Shown here: positions 18,012 to 55,064 of the stretch, one piece after another
Layout of the letters: every line of letters starts with the position of its first letter
How positions within the stretch are numbered: position 1 is the first letter of the stretch
Origin: a virus
Direction: 5' to 3' (one strand)
DNA length: 64,000 bases
Virus record (IMG/VR): IMGVR_UViG_3300043570_000570
Span: 32,001 to 96,000 of that record
Program-made: the position numbers and the translations under genes
Notes under the pieces: generated by a model
The model's database searches: none
Told to the model about the DNA's origin: nothing
What the model saw: the letters and a program-made list of their open reading frames with translations, nothing else

Positions 18012-18458
18012 TTAAAGGATTGCGTAATTAATTTTAATTGCTGACAACACAGCGCCTGTAGCGTTGTAGATGCGGATAGCAAAAGAACCTGCAGCAACAC
18101 TCTCAACCGAAAGGTGGATAGAGTAAGCAGCCAATCCAGTAGTGTTGATAGTCAACAAAATAACTGAATCTGCTTTTACATAAGAGTTGTTTACAGTAAA
18201 TACAGCGTTACCTGCAATTGCAATGTTGGTAGTATCAGTAGTGATAACTCCAGCAGGGGCATTCAAAGTAACAGCAGTAGCACGAGAAGTAGCTTGAGTA
18301 ACAGTTCCTTTAGTCAAAGAAACGTTTTTTACACAGCAAGTAGGGTTAGCCAATACACTTATTACAAAATTCTCCAAAGATTCTCCTGGGATAGTATTTG
18401 AGTGCGATGTCTTAGTCTCCTTAAGGTATGTACCTGATTTTAGAATAATATCTTTCAT
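18012..18458 (-). CDS. Head fibre/decoration-like protein
   Basis: VTQATSRATAVTLNAPAGVIT...FTVNNSYV; followed by hairpin 17986-18005. Confidence 0.5.
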   Translation of the reverse strand: MKDIILKSGTYLKETKTSHSNTIPGESLENFVISVLANPTCCVKNVSLTKGTVTQATSRATAVTLNAPAGVITTDTTNIAIAGNAVFTVNNSYVKADSVILLTINTTGLAAYSIHLSVESVAAGSFAIRIYNATGAVLSAIKINYAIL

Positions 18459-18516
18459 TTTTGTTTTATTTAATTAAGGTTAAAAAAGGGGAGAGTATTA
18501 GTCTCCCCTATTTAGA

Positions 18517-46499: not shown

Positions 46500-46528
46500 C
46501 AAATATAAGCTAACTTTAAATAAATCAA
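46500..46528 (-). promoter_or_regulatory. Promoter of the two-component operon
   Basis: CAAATATA 46500-46507, CAA 46526-46528. Confidence 0.55.
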
Positions 46529-46552
46529 AGTCTTGTCTCTGAAAACTTATCT

Positions 46553-46752
46553 CCCCAAAATTTTTAGACCCCCCATCCCAAAATTTCTCCCAAAATTTTT
46601 TCTAAAATTTTTAGACCCCTAAAATTTTTTATGTTCATAGGAGGGTGGGACCAAAATTTTATACCCCCGTCAACTTGATTATATCTATATGAGGGTGGGG
46701 GACACCAATTTAACATACCCCATCCCAAAATTGGCGCTAGGGGTACCCCCTA
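46553..46752. repeat. CCCAAAATTT / C- and G-run repeat tract at the strand switch
   Basis: Repeated (C)CAAAATTT units, AAAATTTTTAGACCCC twice, GAGGGTGGG twice, palindrome TAGGGGTACCCCCTA. Confidence 0.7.
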
Positions 46753-46772
46753 TAAAACGCTATAAAAAAAAT

Positions 46773-47096
46773 ATGAAAACAAATCTAGACTTCGATGGTA
46801 AGACAATCAATGAGATTGGCTTAGAAATGACAAATGTGTTTCGTACACAAGGTGCAACAAAGGCTCCAGGCTTCAACATTCTCACGGGTGAGAAAGATGA
46901 ACAAGGCAAAGAGCAAGTGGTGTTTGTTTGGTTGAGTAAGAATTTGAATGCTCAATGGGAAGATGAACGCTTTAAAACGGTTGCTGGCAACTCAGTGGTT
47001 CTTGAAGTAACCTTCAAGGAAACAGGGCATAAGGCACTTGTTTGTTGTACTCCTCAAATCCGCAACAAAATGGCGGATGCAGAAGTGTGGGATTAA
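46773..47096 (+). CDS. First plus-strand (early) gene, hypothetical
   Basis: Likely start MKTNLDFDG after an A-rich leader; followed by hairpin GTGTGGG/CCCACAC. Confidence 0.6.
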   Translation: MKTNLDFDGKTINEIGLEMTNVFRTQGATKAPGFNILTGEKDEQGKEQVVFVWLSKNLNAQWEDERFKTVAGNSVVLEVTFKETGHKALVCCTPQIRNKMADAEVWD

Positions 47097-47489
47097 CCCA
47101 CACTTTGTGGGACAAAGGGTAACTTAACTGTTTAACCTTGCCATTTTACTGTGCATTCTTCTCATTTATCTATGAAATGATAGTTTTTTTGGTCTCAGCC
47201 CGGTAAATAACGAGACAAGACTAAAGAATTCTATCATTTTATGGTATATATGTAGTGGTAAATAGTGGGGAATCACTCCCTTCAATCTTCTATTTATCAC
47301 TTAAAAGTGGGTAATTGTGGGGTTGACATGGTACGTTATGAATAATTTGTTGTTCTTATGTTAAATTAGACAACTATTAACCTCTATAACCTCATTACCC
47401 TGTCTTATGCTTTTCTCTTATCTTCTCTTACGTAGTAATCATCATTAGCCTGATGATTCCTTAACTGATTCTAAGCGAACTTTACGCTT

Positions 47490-47551
47490 GGTCGACTATG
47501 CGACCTTAAATAGCCTTTAGGCATAGTGCGTCACTATATGAGTGGGTATGG
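47490..47551 (+). ncRNA. Pistol self-cleaving ribozyme
   Basis: P1 GGUCG/CGACC; loop ACUAUG pairs with CAUAGU (pseudoknot); conserved UUAAAUAG and GCG; P3 UCACU/AGUGG; GU cleavage dinucleotide 47546-47547; P2 CCUU/AUGG has one mismatch. Confidence 0.8.
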
Positions 47552-47706
47552 AAACAATAATTAAAGAGTATTACTTAACTGAAGGAAGTAAGTTAGTAAA
47601 TTATAGCATAGGTACTAATGGTGTTGATTGTTGGTTTGATACTAATGATATTAGACAACACAGATGTTTATCTATTGAAGATTTTGAACTTATTAAGGGG
47701 GCTTAA
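47548..47706 (+). CDS. 52-aa early protein (not in track)
   Basis: METIIKEYYLTEGSKLVNYSIGTNGVDCWFDTNDIRQHRCLSIEDFELIKGA*. Confidence 0.55.
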   Translation: METIIKEYYLTEGSKLVNYSIGTNGVDCWFDTNDIRQHRCLSIEDFELIKGA

Positions 47707-47736
47707 TCGCCTCCTTTAAACTTTAATAAAAAGAAT

Positions 47737-47868
47737 ATGAAAACAATAGAACAAACAATTGATAGTTTAGAACAGCAAGTAAGAGATACATATCCTTCAT
47801 GGAATAATGAAATGATTAGGTCTAAGGCTGTTAGAATGTATTATTTAAATGAAGAGTTGGGAGCTTAG
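47737..47868 (+). CDS. 43-aa early protein (not in track)
   Basis: MKTIEQTIDSLEQQVRDTYPSWNNEMIRSKAVRMYYLNEELGA*; A-rich leader. Confidence 0.6.
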   Translation: MKTIEQTIDSLEQQVRDTYPSWNNEMIRSKAVRMYYLNEELGA

Positions 47869-47894
47869 TCTCCCTTTACTTTAACTAAACAAAT

Positions 47895-48044
47895 ATGAAA
47901 AACTATAGAGTCACCTACTATAATACAGAATATAGCATTAAGTCTATTTCTGTTATGGCTTTTACTCAAGAAGAAGCAAGAACTTATGTATATAGTCACA
48001 TAGAAGATTGTGTTCAAACACTCTCTGCTGAATATATATACTAA
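47895..48044 (+). CDS. 49-aa early protein (not in track)
   Basis: MKNYRVTYYNTEYSIKSISVMAFTQEEARTYVYSHIEDCVQTLSAEYIY*; A-rich leader. Confidence 0.6.
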   Translation: MKNYRVTYYNTEYSIKSISVMAFTQEEARTYVYSHIEDCVQTLSAEYIY

Positions 48045-48049
48045 ACATT

Positions 48050-48151
48050 ATCAAAGAGTAGTAACACTGCATGTAAACTGGTTATCCTTGATTACAGTAT
48101 GCAGACCTTTACATAGTAAATCAAGCTATGTTATGTATTGGACTCTTTGAT
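48050..48151 (+). ncRNA. Three-way-junction RNA with kissing loops (unassigned)
   Basis: AUCAAAGAGU/ACUCUUUGAU; CUGCAU..ACUG/CAGU.AUGCAG; ACAUAG/CUAUGU; loops CUUGAUU and AAUCAAG are complementary. Confidence 0.5.
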
Positions 48152-48296
48152 TACTTTAATGCATCATAACCTACTTCACAAGGGTAGGCAGTTGTAATAA
48201 CAGTATAGAGTCTGGAGAACCAAGCGTAAGCTGGACATAGGTAGTTCTCATGAAGCTGCGGAAGCTACTATTACAACTGAATGCAGAGTGAAGTAA
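48151..48296 (+). ncRNA. Twister self-cleaving ribozyme (P1 type, large P5 insert)
   Basis: P1 UUACUU/AAGUAA; U^AA site 48157/48158; P2 UGCA/UGCA; P4 CCUAC/GUAGG with loop UUCACAAGG; T1 CAC/GUG after conserved GA; P5 CAGUUGUAAUA/UAUUACAACUG; T2 non-canonical. Confidence 0.75.
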
Positions 48297-48393
48297 ACTA
48301 CAAGGTATGGTATATCCTACTAACACGTCTAGAGGACCTTGTAGTTCTTTTATACCTAAGGGTATTATACCAACTAGTATAAACTAAACAGAT

Positions 48394-48606
48394 ATGAAGA
48401 AATTTATAATATTCTCTACGTTAAGTCAAGCAAAGAATTACATTAAGCGTAATCTTCCCACCTATAACCATGATGATGGATGTGGGTGTTGCTATAGTTA
48501 TTCTTATCCTTTAATACAGGGTAAGCGTATTGTCTATGTTAATAGTTATTCTAACATGGGTAATCCAACTACTGAAGTAACTGTCATTGGCAGATACAAA
48601 AGATAA
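48394..48606 (+). CDS. Hypothetical early protein
   Basis: 70 aa, HDDGCGCC. Confidence 0.55.
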   Translation: MKKFIIFSTLSQAKNYIKRNLPTYNHDDGCGCCYSYSYPLIQGKRIVYVNSYSNMGNPTTEVTVIGRYKR

Positions 48607-48763
48607 ACACTCTACTGGCTATAGAGTGTATAAAATGTCGTGATTGGCCACACGTCAAGGCAAATGAAGATGTCTTTGAAACACAAAGATGTTTCTAAAG
48701 GGGATTAGTGAACTAATGATCTAATCCCTCATCTTTTTTAACTAATTAACTAATTAAAAAAAT

Positions 48764-48991
48764 ATGAAACTACTTATACATTTTGGGAAGTCACTGTTGA
48801 TGATAGTGATCCCTATTGCTTTTGCTGTTGTGTCTTCTATTATTATAAGCGCAATGTTCGCCTGTGTTTCTGTTCTTATGGGACATAACACTTTCTTTAA
48901 CTCTTTTCAAGCATTAATAGCCAATGTCACCTTTGTGATGTCTATTATTACCTTGATTATGTGGCTTATCTATCAATCTAATGAACTTTAA
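48764..48991 (+). CDS. Small two-TM membrane protein
   Basis: Hydrophobic ORF with A-rich leader. Confidence 0.55.
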   Translation: MKLLIHFGKSLLMIVIPIAFAVVSSIIISAMFACVSVLMGHNTFFNSFQALIANVTFVMSIITLIMWLIYQSNEL

Positions 48992-49004
48992 ACCAAACAA
49001 AAAT

Positions 49005-49208
49005 ATGAAAATTAAACCGTCCACATTCTTACTTGTCATCGCTGTATGTGCAGGTATGGTATTTATCATGGCTCTTCCTGATGTTATTAGTAGCATGGGA
49101 ACACAAGCCTTTACTTATGTGTTTACTACAGAAGTTTTAACTTTATGTTTACTTACAGTAGTAGGACACTTTTATCTTAAGTCTCTTAAAGAAGAAGGTA
49201 ATGATTAA
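49005..49208 (+). CDS. Small two-TM membrane protein
   Basis: Likely start MKIKPSTF. Confidence 0.55.
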   Translation: MKIKPSTFLLVIAVCAGMVFIMALPDVISSMGTQAFTYVFTTEVLTLCLLTVVGHFYLKSLKEEGND

Positions 49209-49341
49209 TCAACAAGTACTAAGCGTTATGAAGCCTAGAATCCCTTCAGGTAAAATCCTTGCAAGAGGATATGACAAAGAAGGTAGATTAATTATGGTAA
49301 GACTTAATAGTGCTGGCTTTAAAGGCTGGCACTTTCTCTAA
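49201..49341 (+). CDS. 46-aa hypothetical protein (not in track)
   Basis: MINQQVLSVMKPRIPSGKILARGYDKEGRLIMVRLNSAGFKGWHFL*. Confidence 0.45.
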   Translation: MINQQVLSVMKPRIPSGKILARGYDKEGRLIMVRLNSAGFKGWHFL

Positions 49342-49351
49342 AACTAAAACT

Positions 49352-49549
49352 ATGAACTACGATTCAATTCAAGATGAGCTTACAGAACTCTATCAAGAGT
49401 TAAATGCTGCAGAAAATGACTTACATATTTCTTGTAAGTCATCTCTTTTATTAGATTCAGGAGAAGAAAACTGGGTACGAGATCAACAACGTTTAATTGC
49501 TGCTCTGCGTGCTAAAATTCAATCTTTAACTATTTTAATATCAAAGTAA
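49352..49549 (+). CDS. Coiled-coil hypothetical protein
   Basis: Likely start MNYDSIQDEL. Confidence 0.55.
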   Translation: MNYDSIQDELTELYQELNAAENDLHISCKSSLLLDSGEENWVRDQQRLIAALRAKIQSLTILISK

Positions 49550-49644
49550 TGGAAAAACAATTATTTATCATTGACGGCTACAGAATCTGGGCTTTGACCT
49601 ATGAAGATGCTTATGCTAACTACTTAGTAATTTCAAGACTATGA
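49549..49644 (+). CDS. 31-aa hypothetical protein
   Basis: MEKQLFIIDGYRIWALTYEDAYANYLVISRL*; TAATG and ATGA coupling. Confidence 0.5.
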   Translation: MEKQLFIIDGYRIWALTYEDAYANYLVISRL

Positions 49645-49817
49645 AACCAGAAAATCCTTTTAGCGAAAGTACGGCCTTCAAAGCCCTTGTATGGTTCTCT
49701 TTAATAACTGTAATTTGCATTTGTTTAGAGAGTTGTGCAACTTCTAAAAATGTACCACATGGTTGTGGTAAAAAATCTAAGCGTTACTATCACGGAGAAT
49801 TCCTAGAATATAGATAA
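49641..49817 (+). CDS. Small lipoprotein
   Basis: MKPENPF...LITVICICLESCATSK, lipobox LESC. Confidence 0.5.
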   Translation: MKPENPFSESTAFKALVWFSLITVICICLESCATSKNVPHGCGKKSKRYYHGEFLEYR

Positions 49818-49824
49818 CCTTAAT

Positions 49825-49896
49825 GTCCCTTTCGTCTATTGGTAGGACAGCAGGATTTCATCCTGTTAAAGGTGTGTTCGATTCACCCAGGGGATA
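49825..49896 (+). tRNA. tRNA-Glu (anticodon TTC)
   Basis: Acceptor GTCCCTT/AGGGGAT, D-arm, anticodon arm GCAGG-ATTTCAT-CCTGT, T-loop TTCGATT; one T-stem mismatch; CCA not encoded (CTA). Confidence 0.8.
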
Positions 49897-49911
49897 CTAA
49901 ACTAACTAACT

Positions 49912-50226
49912 ATGAAAAAACTGTTCTTAATCTTAATCGTATGTGGCTTCAGTAATCTGAAAGCCCAACTATTCCCTATTAAAAGTCTAGAAGGTATGAT
50001 GCCTCTTACTTTATCCGATACAATGTTTGTAGAGGATCTAATAGGCGAAGGAAAACATCCTTCACCTAAAGTTTTAAATTGCTTTGTCTTTAAATTCTCT
50101 GAATGGAACTACGTTATAACATATAAGCTAACAGATCGTGATCAGCTATATATTATTAAGGATGGTTACATAGGAGATATTTACATATTCAAGGATAACA
50201 AAGTAGAAATACTTAGAGAAGATTAA
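49912..50226 (+). CDS. Secreted hypothetical protein
   Basis: Signal peptide MKKLFLILIVCGFSNLKAQ. Confidence 0.55.
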   Translation: MKKLFLILIVCGFSNLKAQLFPIKSLEGMMPLTLSDTMFVEDLIGEGKHPSPKVLNCFVFKFSEWNYVITYKLTDRDQLYIIKDGYIGDIYIFKDNKVEILRED

Positions 50227-50280
50227 ATTAGATTAAACATTAAACAAACAAACTAAAAACAAAAAACTAAAAACAAAATT

Positions 50281-50904
50281 ATGACTTACGAAGATTTCAA
50301 ATCAACAAACCTTGCTTTTGCTAGTAAAGCCTTCCGCAACTCTGGTATCAAAGCACCAATTACTGTTATGTTCGAGTGTTATACTCCTGCTAACCTATCT
50401 GTTCACCAACGTATGATTAGCCGTGGTCTTGGTGGTAATTTAACCAACCGTATGACTGCTCTATTAAACTTCACAGAAGAAAACTTCAACAGCGACTTTG
50501 GTCAGTTTGGAATTAACGCTGATGATGTAACTGGTGATTATTCAACAGCTATTCCTGTTAACGTAAACACTTCTCAGTTGTATGGTGAAGACTTAATCCT
50601 TCGCAGGGTAGATACTACTGATTCTGCTATTGTAAGCAATCCTGATGGTTCTATTAAGCCTCAGTGGTCTATTAAGACTGTTAATGGTCAAGAATTGACT
50701 TTTGAAGGTGCTCTTATCTACACTACTGTAGAGTTTGCTGAGCCAGGTATGTCTAACGCTACTATTAAGCAAGATCAAAACTTGTCTCGTAGTATTACTA
50801 ATATGTCTAGTGGTGCTTCTATTGGTGCTCTTAAGGAAAATAAGGCTCCTAAAGCAAAAGTAACAGAAGAAGTACTTGCTGATAATACACAAGCAGCATT
50901 CTAA
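50281..50904 (+). CDS. Highly expressed hypothetical protein (possibly ssDNA-binding)
   Basis: Strong codon bias, long A-rich leader, flexible tail ending in F; function is a guess. Confidence 0.45.
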   Translation: MTYEDFKSTNLAFASKAFRNSGIKAPITVMFECYTPANLSVHQRMISRGLGGNLTNRMTALLNFTEENFNSDFGQFGINADDVTGDYSTAIPVNVNTSQLYGEDLILRRVDTTDSAIVSNPDGSIKPQWSIKTVNGQELTFEGALIYTTVEFAEPGMSNATIKQDQNLSRSITNMSSGASIGALKENKAPKAKVTEEVLADNTQAAF

Positions 50905-51010
50905 TTAACAAGGCCATAAACTAATAATTATTTATTATTGGTCTTAAGTCAGGATAGATTAGCGTTTATCCTGACTACCAAGAACTAACAAACGTTAGTT
51001 ATCTTAAACT

Positions 51011-51107
51011 ATTGCTGAACTCACACTATAGTTTTTCATATTTTCTATATTAAAGCAATCATATCTGTTAGGGTAAAAAGGGGAAGAGTGTGAGCTTCCC
51101 TTTTTTT
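51011..51107 (+). ncRNA. Candidate antisense sRNA hairpin plus terminator
   Basis: 51026-51043 is the exact reverse complement of 47891-47908; terminator GGGAAG-AGUGUGAG-CUUCCC-U7. Confidence 0.5.
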
Positions 51108-51159
51108 ATTACTTTATTGCTTTAATTTATCTCGAACCTAATAATTAAACCTATACAGA

Positions 51160-51534
51160 ATGAGAAAAAGAATTATCAAAGCAGAAAAAGTGTACTCAGC
51201 TAGTCCTGAGTTTCCTATCAATGTACTTCCTATTCAAGGAAGGACTAAGCGATTTATCTCTAAAAAACTAGAGAGAGTTAGAGAAGTTGAAATCAGTAAC
51301 ATGTTTAAACATCTCACCATTGACTCTATCTTAGATGAGAAAAGGTATTTAAAGACCTTAACTCAGCTTCCTACTAAACAAACTATCATTCCTGTAAGGG
51401 AAGAAGTAGTTGTACCTCAAGACTACGAAGTAATACCAGACATTGTTCTAGGTAATATTAGAGTAGGTAAAAACTATCTTAAGACTTTTATTGAGCGACT
51501 TGAAGTTGTATCAGTAATTGATTGGCAAGACTAA
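51160..51534 (+). CDS. Hypothetical protein
   Basis: 124-aa ORF. Confidence 0.55.
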   Translation: MRKRIIKAEKVYSASPEFPINVLPIQGRTKRFISKKLERVREVEISNMFKHLTIDSILDEKRYLKTLTQLPTKQTIIPVREEVVVPQDYEVIPDIVLGNIRVGKNYLKTFIERLEVVSVIDWQD

Positions 51535-51554
51535 AACAAACTAACAGATAAATT

Positions 51555-52085
51555 ATGTCATTTAACTTTCAAGACTATTCAGTCAAAGAAGATGTCAGAG
51601 AGATTATCAGTCAGAAGTACACAGGTGGGGATATATTATCCCTGCCTGCTGACAACTTTCTCTTTGAGTCTAAGTTTCCTAATGCTAAAATCACTTGTTG
51701 TGAACTAGACACAGAAACTTACAAACGTGGTAGAAAATTTAAACCACAGAATGTAGAGTATTTAAACAGAGACGTCTTCACCCTTAAGGGCAGATATGAC
51801 TTTGTATGGCTAGACTTATGTATTAATCTAAGTCCAATGCTTGTAAATACCTTCATTTCTTACTTTCAAGATTCAACAGCTAAGACTATTTGTCTAACCA
51901 TTCAAGGTAAAAGAGAATTATTTGGAAACAAATTAAAATTCTATGGAGCTAAAGATCTTGATGACTTTCGTTACAATGTATTTCCTAAACTATTAGAAGA
52001 CTTTAGTGGATACAAAGTAACTGAAATCTACCGCTATCTAAGCCCTAACAAGAGCCCAATGATAGTGTATTCATTTGAAAAATAA
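51555..52085 (+). CDS. Class I SAM-methyltransferase-like fold protein
   Basis: ILSLPA...ITCCELD...NRDVF...YDFVWLDLC. Confidence 0.5.
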   Translation: MSFNFQDYSVKEDVREIISQKYTGGDILSLPADNFLFESKFPNAKITCCELDTETYKRGRKFKPQNVEYLNRDVFTLKGRYDFVWLDLCINLSPMLVNTFISYFQDSTAKTICLTIQGKRELFGNKLKFYGAKDLDDFRYNVFPKLLEDFSGYKVTEIYRYLSPNKSPMIVYSFEK

Positions 52086-52132
52086 CAAAAAAACAAAAAC
52101 AAAAACAAAAACCTAAAAAAAAACAAAAAATT

Positions 52133-52579
52133 ATGGAAAATCAAACACAAACAATCAATTACAAGCCATTTCACAAGTTAAACTTTAGTGAGCAGGCAAT
52201 TAGTGAGTTACTTACAGAGTTTAAAGCTGGTAAAAAATCTTCTGAGGTAAAAGCTAAGTATCCTCAGTATTTTGAATCAAGAAATGCAGGTATTATTTAT
52301 GTTGTAAGAACTGAAATGATTAAACAAGGTTTAATTTCAATGAGTGAACCTGCAGCAAGAATGGTTGCAACTAAAAGGCGTTTGCAGAAACAAAAAGCAC
52401 GTAAAGCATATAAAATGGCTTTAGGAGCTATCCAAACACCTACAGTAGCTCCTAAAGTATCTACAATCAAAGAAAGCGTAGCTAATTCTATGATTAAGAT
52501 AGATTTCCACGGAACTATCATCCATATCGAGAGAACTAGTAGTATTATTATTACTAAAGATCAAATTGTAGTTCGTTAA
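52133..52579 (+). CDS. Basic hypothetical protein
   Basis: 148-aa ORF followed by hairpin CTAGGGTAGGA/TCTTACCCTAG. Confidence 0.55.
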   Translation: MENQTQTINYKPFHKLNFSEQAISELLTEFKAGKKSSEVKAKYPQYFESRNAGIIYVVRTEMIKQGLISMSEPAARMVATKRRLQKQKARKAYKMALGAIQTPTVAPKVSTIKESVANSMIKIDFHGTIIHIERTSSIIITKDQIVVR

Positions 52580-52671
52580 TTAATCAATCTAGGGTAGGAG
52601 AGATCTTACCCTAGGTTCCAATTGGCATAGTTGTTGCCTTAATTTATGTTTAACCTCTAATATTAAAAATC

Positions 52672-53169
52672 ATGTATTACAAACAAAATCAAGACCTTAG
52701 CTTTTCAAAAGTGCCAAATTTCAGAAACCTATTCTACGGTTCTTTAATTATTAATGTTATCTTTGCTGTACTTCTGTTTATGGCATTCACAACTCCAGAT
52801 AAACCTATCTACAAGACTAAAATTGTAAAAGAAATCGTAACAGAAAAAGATGTAGTTCTTAATGATTCAGGTATTACAGCTGAGTTGACAAAGAGTGGAG
52901 TAATCTTAGCTGCTGTTGCATGTTTACAGTCTAAAATAGAAAGCAATCATGGTAAGTCTAACGTAGGTATCCAAGCAAAGAACTTGTTTGGTATTACCTA
53001 TCACAGATGTAAACATGTAGCTGGTAAGCATGGAGTTTATGCTCGTTATGATAGCTATCGAGACAATATCAAATGCTATGCTCACATTCAAGCTAGATAT
53101 CTTAAAAATATTGATGGAAAATATGCTTCCGACCCTGGATATGTAGAAAAACTTAAATCATTTAAGTAA
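52672..53169 (+). CDS. Membrane-anchored glucosaminidase (GH73-like)
   Basis: TM helix; QSKIESNHG, KNLFGI, YASDPGYVEKL. Confidence 0.75.
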   Translation: MYYKQNQDLSFSKVPNFRNLFYGSLIINVIFAVLLFMAFTTPDKPIYKTKIVKEIVTEKDVVLNDSGITAELTKSGVILAAVACLQSKIESNHGKSNVGIQAKNLFGITYHRCKHVAGKHGVYARYDSYRDNIKCYAHIQARYLKNIDGKYASDPGYVEKLKSFK

Positions 53170-53173
53170 TTAC

Positions 53174-53203
53174 TTGACAAATGGGGAGTAATGCGTATAT
53201 TTG
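53174..53203 (+). promoter_or_regulatory. Bacteroidota-type promoter carried with the homing endonuclease
   Basis: TTG-N19-TATATTTG; overlaps the track ATG at 53191. Confidence 0.65.
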
Positions 53204-53208
53204 TACAT

Positions 53209-53997
53209 ATGAAAAGACTTACCCCTGAACAAAAAGCAGAAATGATTGAACTTTACACTTCTGGTCAAATAAAAGTACCTAAAAAATTAGATGAAAAATA
53301 CAATATCTTTCCAGGATCATGCTACAATCTCCTAAAAAGAAGAGGTCTTATTAAATATAGTATAGCAGATCAACTGAGATGTTTTAATGAAAATTATTTT
53401 GATAAAATTGAATCAGAAAAACAAGCTTATTTTTTAGGATTAATTGCTGCTGATGGCACTGTATCTAGTAGTAAAAATACTATATCTATTACTTTAAAAG
53501 TAGAGGATGGATTATATTTGTTAGAAGAACTCAAAAAAGAAATTAGTTCAACAGGTAAAATAAGTATTTATAACGACAAAAGAGATAATTATGTAAGAAA
53601 ACCTATGTGTATGATGCAATTTACCAGTATGCATACCAAAACAGTTTTTTGTGAACTAGGAATATCTCCGAATAAAACATCTAATCTATGCTATCCTAAA
53701 ATAAACAAAGAATTAGATAGACACTTTATAAGAGGATTTATAGATGGAGATGGATCTTTTCACTATAAAAGAGGAATACTTGTTTTTGCTTTAGTAGGCA
53801 CAGAAGAAATCTTAAGAAGTATTCAGGATATATTCTACACAGAAATAAACGTAGAATATACAAAACTTATACAACATATTACTGGAGTATACTATTTAAG
53901 ATTAGGACACAAAAACACATTAAAGTTAAGAGAGTGGTTATATAAAGACTGTTCTGTAGCAATGAAACGAAAACAAAATTATAACGACAGATTATGA
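53209..53997 (+). CDS. LAGLIDADG homing endonuclease (free-standing)
   Basis: AYFLGLIAADG and HFIRGFIDGDG; start moved to MKRLT. Confidence 0.85.
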   Translation: MKRLTPEQKAEMIELYTSGQIKVPKKLDEKYNIFPGSCYNLLKRRGLIKYSIADQLRCFNENYFDKIESEKQAYFLGLIAADGTVSSSKNTISITLKVEDGLYLLEELKKEISSTGKISIYNDKRDNYVRKPMCMMQFTSMHTKTVFCELGISPNKTSNLCYPKINKELDRHFIRGFIDGDGSFHYKRGILVFALVGTEEILRSIQDIFYTEINVEYTKLIQHITGVYYLRLGHKNTLKLREWLYKDCSVAMKRKQNYNDRL

Positions 53998-55064
53998 TAA
54001 CAAGAGACCTAGTACAACATCAGGCTTTAAAAGAAGCCATGCAATTTAAAAGAAGTGGATTACAACTGGCAACAGGTGCAGGTAAGACAAAAGTAGGATT
54101 AGACTACATAACTGTCTTACCTGATACTTATAAAGTGCTAGTAGTAGCTCCTAAAGTAGATATCTTTAAGTCTTGGATTGATGACGCTAAAAAGTTTGAA
54201 GTAGAAGAACTCCTAGATAGGATTACATTCTCTACTTATCTTTCTATAACTAAGCACAATCCTGAGGAGTATGATATTGTTATCTTAGATGAAGCACACT
54301 CTCTTAAAGCGACTGCTTTACCTTTTCTTAATAGTTACAGAGGAAGGATTCTAGGCTTAACAGGAACTCCTCCTAAGTACCTGACTTCAGAGAAAGGTCA
54401 ACTTATGATGGAATACTACCCTATTAAGTATGTATTTAAGACAGACAAAGCTGTAGAGAATGAGATTCTTAATGACTATCACATATTCGTTCATTACTTA
54501 GATTTAAATAGAAATAAAACTATGCAAACTAAGCAAGGATGGATGACCAGTGAAAGAGCACAGTATGATTGGATTACTAGAGAGATTGATGGAGCTATTG
54601 GAAACAGTCTAATGTTTAAGACTATCCAAAGAATCAACTTCTTAAAACAGTTTGACACTAAGGAACATTATGCAAAGAATCTTCTAGAAGAACTAGACCA
54701 AAAAGAAAAAGTTATAATCTTTGCAAACACCATAGATCAAGCTGAAAGACTGTGTAAGCACTCTCACCACTCTAAGAACAAAAATAGTCCCTTAGAAGGC
54801 TTTAAAACAGGTGAAATCACTAGATTATCTTGTGTAGAGCAACTAAGCGAGGGTGTTAACATCCCTAATCTTAAAAATGCTATCATTCTTCACTCTTATT
54901 CAGGAGGTTCTCCTAAAGCTCAACAGAAGTTTGGGCGTATGTTACGCTTACCTACAGATCAGACAGCTACAGTTCATATACTTTGTTATCGTAACACAGT
55001 AGATGAGAAGTGGGTATCAGATAACTTAAAGAATTACGACCAGAACAAAATAACTTACATTTAA
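53994..55064 (+). CDS. SF2 (DEAH, ResIII/UvsW-like) helicase
   Basis: ATGAGKT, DEAH, LTGT, LSEGVNIP, QKFGRMLR. Confidence 0.9.
   Translation: MITRDLVQHQALKEAMQFKRSGLQLATGAGKTKVGLDYITVLPDTYKVLVVAPKVDIFKSWIDDAKKFEVEELLDRITFSTYLSITKHNPEEYDIVILDEAHSLKATALPFLNSYRGRILGLTGTPPKYLTSEKGQLMMEYYPIKYVFKTDKAVENEILNDYHIFVHYLDLNRNKTMQTKQGWMTSERAQYDWITREIDGAIGNSLMFKTIQRINFLKQFDTKEHYAKNLLEELDQKEKVIIFANTIDQAERLCKHSHHSKNKNSPLEGFKTGEITRLSCVEQLSEGVNIPNLKNAIILHSYSGGSPKAQQKFGRMLRLPTDQTATVHILCYRNTVDEKWVSDNLKNYDQNKITYI

Follow-up and report, generated by a model that had tools for sequence, protein, structure and literature searches.

Does the DNA at positions 51011–51107 encode a small RNA that silences early phage genes by pairing with their start codons? 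The question arises from an inverted match of 18 nt: bases 51026–51043 are the exact reverse complement of 47891–47908, the start region of ORF 47895 on the + strand. The first-pass annotation, which had pointed out this match, read the locus as part of the 3′ untranslated region of a strongly expressed gene.

The window, i.e., the whole stretch of 64,000 nucleotides analysed here, comprises bases 32001–96000 of a 116-kb IMG/VR phage contig (35% G+C). A search for near-identical phage records returned none. Gene starts in the early region are not preceded by Shine-Dalgarno sequences and sit in A-rich leaders, the phage has promoter-like TAnnTTTG boxes, and the nearest (distant) relatives of its helicase occur in Flavobacterium and Bacteroides phages. 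These three features suggest that the host of this phage group probably belongs to Bacteroidota.

A block of + strand genes at 46.7–51 kb holds many mini-genes, a pistol ribozyme (47490–47551; Rfam, 47.8 bits) and a tRNA-Glu gene (49825–49897). The pistol ribozyme agrees with the earlier statement that ORF 47895 lies in ribozyme-excised RNA, but a twister ribozyme had no Rfam match at E ≤ 1 within 47400–48420; a large insert in P5 might hide such a ribozyme from the Rfam model. In general, the early region of these freshwater phages is RNA-dense, with the pistol ribozyme, tRNAs and the freshwater-1 RNA. The TAnnTTTG motif is absent from the + strand of the window over 6 kb (46500–52760), so the early block and the genes at 51160–52579 either share one long transcript or rely on a non-canonical promoter. 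Farther downstream, a superfamily 2 helicase gene (53994–55064) is overlapped at its start by the gene immediately upstream, which encodes a LAGLIDADG-type homing endonuclease (53191–53997; PF14528, phrog_4645).

Fold and distribution of the RNA module

Relatives of the locus were located through the two proteins that flank it in the window, 207 and 124 aa long. The RNA module was found at about 40 loci of related freshwater phages (IMG/VR and metagenome contigs), in three sequence types, A, B and C; type A consists of the window copy and 10 near relatives, and the flanking 124-aa protein is 49–57% identical between types. Comparison of these loci indicates that 51011–51107 forms the 3′ two-thirds of a conserved structured RNA of ~127 nt (50981–51107). 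The module is a real phage RNA, structured and previously unannotated.

At its 5′ end the RNA is predicted to form hairpin H1 (50983–51000, + strand), a 7-bp stem AACUAAC/GUUAGUU with a 4-nt loop, present in both the MFE and centroid folds. Types A and B keep the stem and let the loop vary freely (AAAC, ACUC, GAAC, GCUC); in some type B members, another hairpin, GCUUA/UAAGC, takes its place. Hairpin H2 (51011–51059, +) consists of an outer stem (51011–51016 with 51054–51059) and an inner stem (51027–51031 with 51045–51049), separated on the 5′ side by an internal-loop strand, CUCACAC(U), at 51020–51027. Each of the two stems shows one compensatory change, from U-A to C-G, with U.G intermediates, and the inner stem is weak enough to be missing from the MFE fold of the window sequence. 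The 13-nt loop of H2 (51032–51044, UUUUUCAUAUUUU) is identical in all type A copies; in type B it reads UUUUGCUCAAUU, without CAU, and type C has no equivalent hairpin.

H2 is followed by a linker, CAUAUCUGUUAGGGU (51060–51074, +), which is single-stranded in the centroid fold. It opens with CAUAUC, six bases shared by types A and B and by most of type C, where the variant L052 has CAUCAUC. The module closes with an intrinsic (Rho-independent) terminator (51075–51107, +; 51075–51106 in the terminator scan), a G+C-containing stem-loop of 12 bp with an 8-nt loop, AGUGUGAG, followed directly by a U7 tail. The terminator stem differs between types A and B by a compensatory change (A-U to G-C), and in L033 it is shortened in a coordinated manner by one pair. 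Because the opposite strand would have A.C mismatches in place of the U.G intermediates, the + strand is the one that acts as RNA.

The internal-loop segment CTCACACT (51020–51027) is the exact complement of the terminator loop AGTGTGAG (51087–51094), as the first-pass annotation had observed. An 8-nt match of this kind occurs in 0.4% of shuffles of the upstream 95 nt (P = 0.004). The pairing also covaries: CUCACAC:GUGUGAG of type A becomes CUUACAC:GUGUAAG in type B, with both sides changed in 7 of 16 rows, a U.G pair in one type A variant and 100% of cells paired. These changes support a real tertiary contact, either a kissing interaction or a pseudoknot.

In type C the partner of the terminator loop is instead the loop of H1 (CCAAUA:UAUUGG), a hairpin-loop to hairpin-loop contact in which both loops are kept and both stems change. 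The upstream partner thus differs by lineage, being the H2 internal loop in types A and B and the H1 loop in type C. The persistence of the contact through this change of partner is the strongest sign that the unit, terminator included, is one folded RNA. When types A and B are aligned, the proposed structure pairs 98.7% of cells (37–53% with slid partners). One compensatory double change was seen in each of four helices, namely both H2 stems, the terminator stem and the loop pairing; most of these changes come from the single A/B split and represent few independent events.

We also considered whether the pairing continues past the 8 nt of the terminator loop, into the 3′ half of its stem, to form an extended antiterminator; the differences between types A and B gave no support to this. 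Mutually exclusive terminator and antiterminator structures backed by covariation, as expected of a riboswitch or attenuator, were not found, and the long-range pairing involves the terminator loop only.

Searches against Rfam 15 placed the RNA in no family at the gathering threshold, C4 antisense RNA, FopS and the L20 leader included. The best score was that of the L20 leader (20.9 bits, threshold 58.7), FopS reached 14.1 (threshold 56), and C4 was absent among the matches at E ≤ 10, the others there being at chance level. The module constitutes a covariation-supported RNA family new to Rfam. Searches with a model of types A and B recovered a single copy in each genome. The only extra match in the window (18403–18513, E = 0.007) turned out to be merely another terminator-like hairpin.

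The 124-aa gene (51160–51534, +) is the only invariant neighbour of the module. Every 124-aa homologue found (~40 loci, 49–98% amino-acid identity) has the module directly upstream, and all contigs found in a motif scan for the RNA also carry this gene. Its product had no match in Pfam, PHROGs or NCBIfam, a protein atlas offered no lead, and the AlphaFold2 model (pLDDT 41) was unusable. We rejected the idea of a repeated promoter motif in the interval that separates the terminator from the 124-aa gene: GAACC-type motifs show no enrichment upstream of genes, and TAnnTTTG does not occur in this interval.

The upstream 207-aa gene is unlinked to the RNA. Its closest relative (94% identity) and others have different DNA downstream, including tRNAs and other RNA units, and in the relatives the RNA follows tRNAs or other units, set off by a minihelix. 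These arrangements contradict the earlier derivation of the RNA from the 3′ untranslated region of this gene.

Constant linkage to the 124-aa gene, next to a variable upstream neighbour, would suit a cis-acting leader or regulated terminator that gates this gene and those that follow, either by the loop pairing or, in read-through transcripts, by a duplex between linker and start region. So would the stretch of ~46.5–52.7 kb free of + strand TAnnTTTG, since the genes at 51160–52579 may need read-through. However, the terminator looks strong and unconditional, with its 12-bp stem, U7 tail and upstream A-tract. Its stem has no competitor backed by covariation, and the loop-loop contact, most clearly in type C, needs a folded terminator hairpin. 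We regard a cis-acting role as unlikely.

A tRNA-like minihelix at the 5′ boundary

Immediately upstream of the RNA lies a minihelix, H0 (50947–50980, +), with a 12-bp helix (50947–50958 with 50965–50976), a 6-nt loop UUAGCG, an unpaired discriminator base A50977 and CCA at 50978–50980. It thus combines the ~12-bp helix, discriminator base and 3′ CCA that characterise a tRNA minihelix, a type of substrate used by RNase P and CCA enzymes. A 12-bp helix with ACCA has the acceptor/T-arm shape that tRNA-processing enzymes recognise. Among 11 variants of H0, compensatory double changes affect three pairs, and pairing holds in 99.2% of cells, compared with 25–46% in slid controls.

The first seven pairs of H0 (AGTCAGG/CCTGACT) and its discriminator A are identical to the acceptor stem of the tRNA-Leu(GAG) gene that occupies the same position in the relative L045. 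In every relative, the 5′ neighbour of the element is either a tRNA 3′ end or H0, the two being interchangeable; in this genome, a tRNA remnant would stand in for the tRNA. Because of its tRNA-like shape, its interchangeability with tRNAs and the presence of H0 copies next to another RNA unit of ~130 nt in relatives, we presume that H0 is a punctuation or processing signal that frees the RNA from ~50981 to the terminator. Such a minihelix argues that the RNA is cut from its transcript and, therefore, against the cis-acting leader discussed above.

The ~130-nt unit itself is conserved and lies between two H0 copies (L013:3660–3790; also in L011, L012, L021, L022 and L024). The strands of its closing stem are AAGAGAAG and CUUUUCUU, and it has no Rfam match at the gathering level. 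It is a candidate for a further structured RNA released by the same punctuation.

The minihelix and terminator boundaries, together with the covariation, bear out the expectation of a discrete-looking structured RNA that ends at a terminator. The alternative that there is no functional element, only an ordinary terminator after chance A/T-rich hairpins, could draw on the base composition, the weak inner stem of H2 and a whole-RNA folding z-score of only −1.9. It is contradicted by the compensatory changes in four helices and in the minihelix. Moreover, the module is conserved where the flanking protein is only ~50% identical, and the tertiary contact survives the change of partner. We consider this alternative very improbable.

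Complementarity to start regions

Over the whole window, the 18-nt match is unremarkable. Inverted 14-, 16- and 18-mers number 34, 5 and 1 (shuffle means 34.5, 4.2 and 0.69), and 40% of dinucleotide shuffles of the window contain at least one inverted 18-mer. The shuffle test proposed by the first-pass annotation, intergenic DNA against start regions, gave a different result: genome-wide, the probability of a match of at least 18 nt is 0.02. When the RNA body, which can be delimited without reference to the match, was compared with the start regions of its own genome (G000), the longest exact complement was 18 nt, a length reached in 0 of 2000 shuffles (null maximum 15), although this value is inflated by selection, the window having been picked for the match.

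In the type C genome G005 the longest complement is 13 nt (P = 0.003), accompanied by three 11-nt matches; in the type B genome G004 it is 9 nt (P = 0.95), and start-region complementarity does not exceed chance. Matches of at least 10 nt fall in start regions 6 of 45 and 5 of 20 times, while start regions make up 2.2% of the sequence, and a start codon lies at the centre of the best match that the G000 RNA has anywhere in its genome. The proposal of start-region antisense is only partly supported: two of the three lineages beat shuffles, type B does not, and its original target, ORF 47895, is absent in five relatives.

Different parts of the RNA provide the complementarity. In type A, the H2 loop matches the dominant early start context, AAUAUGAAA, at six sites. 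The fit to further starts had been claimed earlier for AATATGAAA, and we find this sequence on the + strand at 46770, 47734, 47892, 48761, 49002 and 55079, each time at a called or in-frame possible start codon (7 matches on both strands, 1.8 expected). The linker of the window copy has an 11-nt complement at 48387–48397, in the start region of the gene at 48394–48606. In type C, the linker segment UUUUCAUAUCUGU complements four early gene starts, ACAGAUAUGAA, over 13, 11, 11 and 11 nt; the four share one leader cassette and amount to roughly one event. All pairings between the RNA and start regions are A/U-rich, as the earlier caveat on the 18-nt match had it.

The leader cassette consists of a hairpin, UAUACCU..GGUAUAAUACC, followed by AAACUAAA(A)CAGAUAUG. 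It was found at 48350–48397 of the window, at 110250–110301 in G005 and at 83220–83300 in G004. Such cassettes are common to non-homologous early mini-genes and are swapped between genomes; they look like recombination junctions for mini-gene shuffling. Owing to cassette sharing, one chance match can spread to several genes.

ORF 47895–48044 (49 aa) is a real small gene, with homologues in four metagenomic protein clusters (73–96% identity). No homologous DNA was found in IMG/VR, and none of the five related genomes G001–G005 has a homologue, including three that carry the identical hairpin. Two of them, G001 and G002, lack an 18-mer site within 3 mismatches. In G003, 16 of the 18 bases recur at the start of a different ORF with a shared leader cassette.

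Within the RNA, 12 of the 18 bases lie in the H2 loop; another five make up the 5′ side of the inner stem, and the last is part of the segment that pairs with the terminator loop. Six of them are therefore part of conserved structure, and full pairing must unfold it. The hairpin loop that had been taken as the exposed effector contains CAU but is not conserved beyond type A. The 18-base match is strain-specific, and its function is unproven.

These observations bear on the reading as first formulated, in which a 3′-untranslated-region small RNA of the strongly expressed 207-aa gene silences ORF 47895 and the other early genes with AATATGAAA through its loop. The perfect match, the six start sites, the shuffle result for G000 and the conservation of the target gene speak for it. 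It is nonetheless improbable, given that the RNA is unlinked to the 207-aa gene, the loop is confined to type A and the target is missing from phages with the identical hairpin.

CAUAUC in the linker, conserved in the three types and unpaired in the centroid fold, is the other putative seed. As a generic anti-start binder, the linker initially bound approximately three times as many start regions as shuffled linkers did at E ≤ −11 in all three genomes; this excess was cancelled by the coding-window control. Judged by duplex energy, start regions had no advantage over internal coding windows (12.3 vs 12.7%, 13.7 vs 11.5% and 18.9 vs 18.9%).

By eye, the linker seems to pair convincingly with the start of the downstream 124-aa gene, a match that we keep as a weak lead only. 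Among start regions, the linker's own downstream start ranks 3/130, 9/117 and 16/127 in the three types (Fisher P ~ 0.01, post hoc), and, against random genomic windows, it is only in the top 4–15%. The sequence that immediately follows the type C terminator, ACAGAUAU, is a complement of the linker segment AUAUCUGU. The high ranks and this complement would favour the cis-acting leader, while the comparison with random windows weakens it; the ranks would also suit antisense pairing at this start.

The RNA could also be a stable structured RNA that does not pair with start codons, i.e., a protein-binding RNA, a decoy or a protected 3′ end module of the tRNA/small-RNA array. Phage T4 offers a comparison, as its tRNA cluster encodes two stable RNAs of unknown function. 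Start complementarity would then be a by-product of a U-rich loop facing A-rich starts built from cassettes. Such a role would explain why the structure, tertiary contact included, is conserved and the H2-loop seed is not, why type B has no start-region complementarity and the linker no energetic preference for starts, and how cassettes of the form AAACUAAA(A)CAGAUAUG could spread one chance match over several genes. On the other hand, two lineages beat shuffles independently and through different parts of the RNA, the best G000 complement is centred on a start codon even though starts are a small fraction of the sequence, and CAUAUC is the best-conserved single-stranded motif. We consider a stable RNA of this kind somewhat less likely than antisense pairing.

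Proposed mode of action and known analogues

Start-codon antisense is the most likely, though unproven, role of the RNA. We put the probability that it is a processed, compact small RNA, freed at the tRNA-like minihelix and acting by base pairing at start regions, at roughly 40%. The RNA would be transcribed within the long + strand early transcript and would end at the strong intrinsic terminator. RNase P and the 3′ processing activities of tRNA maturation would cut it free at the minihelix. Its fold comprises two hairpins, the single-stranded linker and the terminator hairpin, with the terminator loop and an unpaired segment of the 5′ domain tying it into a compact shape.

The freed RNA would base-pair at start regions that have no Shine-Dalgarno sequence, where AUG and its A-rich flanks are the natural target. 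Pairing would involve single-stranded segments that contain CAU: this lineage offers the H2 loop UUUUUCAUAUUUU, and all three have CAUAUC in the linker. Among the early mini-genes, those whose starts have AAUAUGAAA or ACAGAUAUGA contexts are candidate targets, and the start of the 124-aa gene immediately downstream may be another. ORF 47895, with its 18-nt match, would offer the strongest site in this strain but would not account for the conservation of the RNA.

The closest known analogue is the C4 antisense RNA of phages P1 and P7. RNase P helps to excise it from a longer transcript; it has three stem-loops and, through its loops, occludes a ribosome-binding region in the same transcription unit (PMC5320573). 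The RNA described here would resemble C4 as a phage small RNA excised by tRNA enzymes whose single-stranded segments act on start regions. Unlike C4, it has a separate minihelix with an encoded CCA and its own terminator in tertiary contact, and its putative targets are not preceded by Shine-Dalgarno sequences.

A second comparison is with 3′ETS-leuZ of E. coli, a sponge for other small RNAs that needs Hfq; to our knowledge, no Hfq system has been described in the host group of these phages. The 5′ ends of 3′ETS RNAs are made by tRNA 3′ maturation. Similarly, the RNA is flanked by the last tRNA of an array and by an intrinsic terminator, and in many relatives it starts exactly at a tRNA 3′ end; in contrast to 3′ETS RNAs, in this genome the tRNA is replaced by a remnant. 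In tRNA punctuation, known from mitochondrial transcripts and from mascRNA at the MALAT1 3′ end, tRNA-shaped elements let tRNA enzymes separate units. H0 is likewise placed between units and flanks other RNA units in relatives, but it is a putative signal made only of a 12-bp helix of acceptor/T-arm length and ACCA, without a cloverleaf.

Bacteroides small RNAs such as GibS reportedly target start regions. RNAs of this type are reported to be trans-acting and Hfq-independent regulators of mRNAs by base pairing in a phylum with little use of Shine-Dalgarno sequences (PMC7366714). The RNA of the window differs in that it is phage-encoded and linked to tRNAs, has a kissing terminator and falls outside those families.

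If the proposed mechanism is true, it would be a first example of translational shut-off by a phage through start-codon antisense, in hosts that do without Shine-Dalgarno pairing, as well as a case in a bacterial virus of tRNA-like punctuation that releases a regulatory RNA. A broader version, which we consider less likely than not, is a riboregulator family of Bacteroidota-type phages in which minihelix-excised RNAs with a kissing terminator carry anti-AUG seeds that co-evolve with the leader cassettes; one RNA would silence a whole class of early genes, the seed moving between loop and linker. Independently of function, the concrete results are a family outside Rfam, a terminator-loop contact that switches partners and a 12-bp ACCA minihelix that replaces a tRNA.

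The relatives revealed other RNAs in the same surroundings. Type B and C relatives have freshwater-1 RNA (RF02979, 76–84 bits) in the tRNA/small-RNA island that precedes the element (L014:3686–3747, L023:1347–1408 and L021:341–403); the window has no copy at the Rfam gathering level. We also observed interrupted tRNA-like genes (L002:6690–6925, L020:850–1000, and in L053 and L043) with insertions of ~60–190 nt. They keep a normal D-arm start, T-arm and acceptor 3′ end and are not called by ARAGORN; Rfam calls one as a 126-nt tRNA (L021:3458–3583). They could be intron-containing or otherwise expanded tRNAs. Finally, a terminator-like hairpin (L006:6925–6962, L002:6640–6680 and L044:1295–1330) has a conserved 16-nt loop, CAUACCGUAAGAUCUG, on a stem that varies, and is possibly an RNA motif or a protein-binding site.
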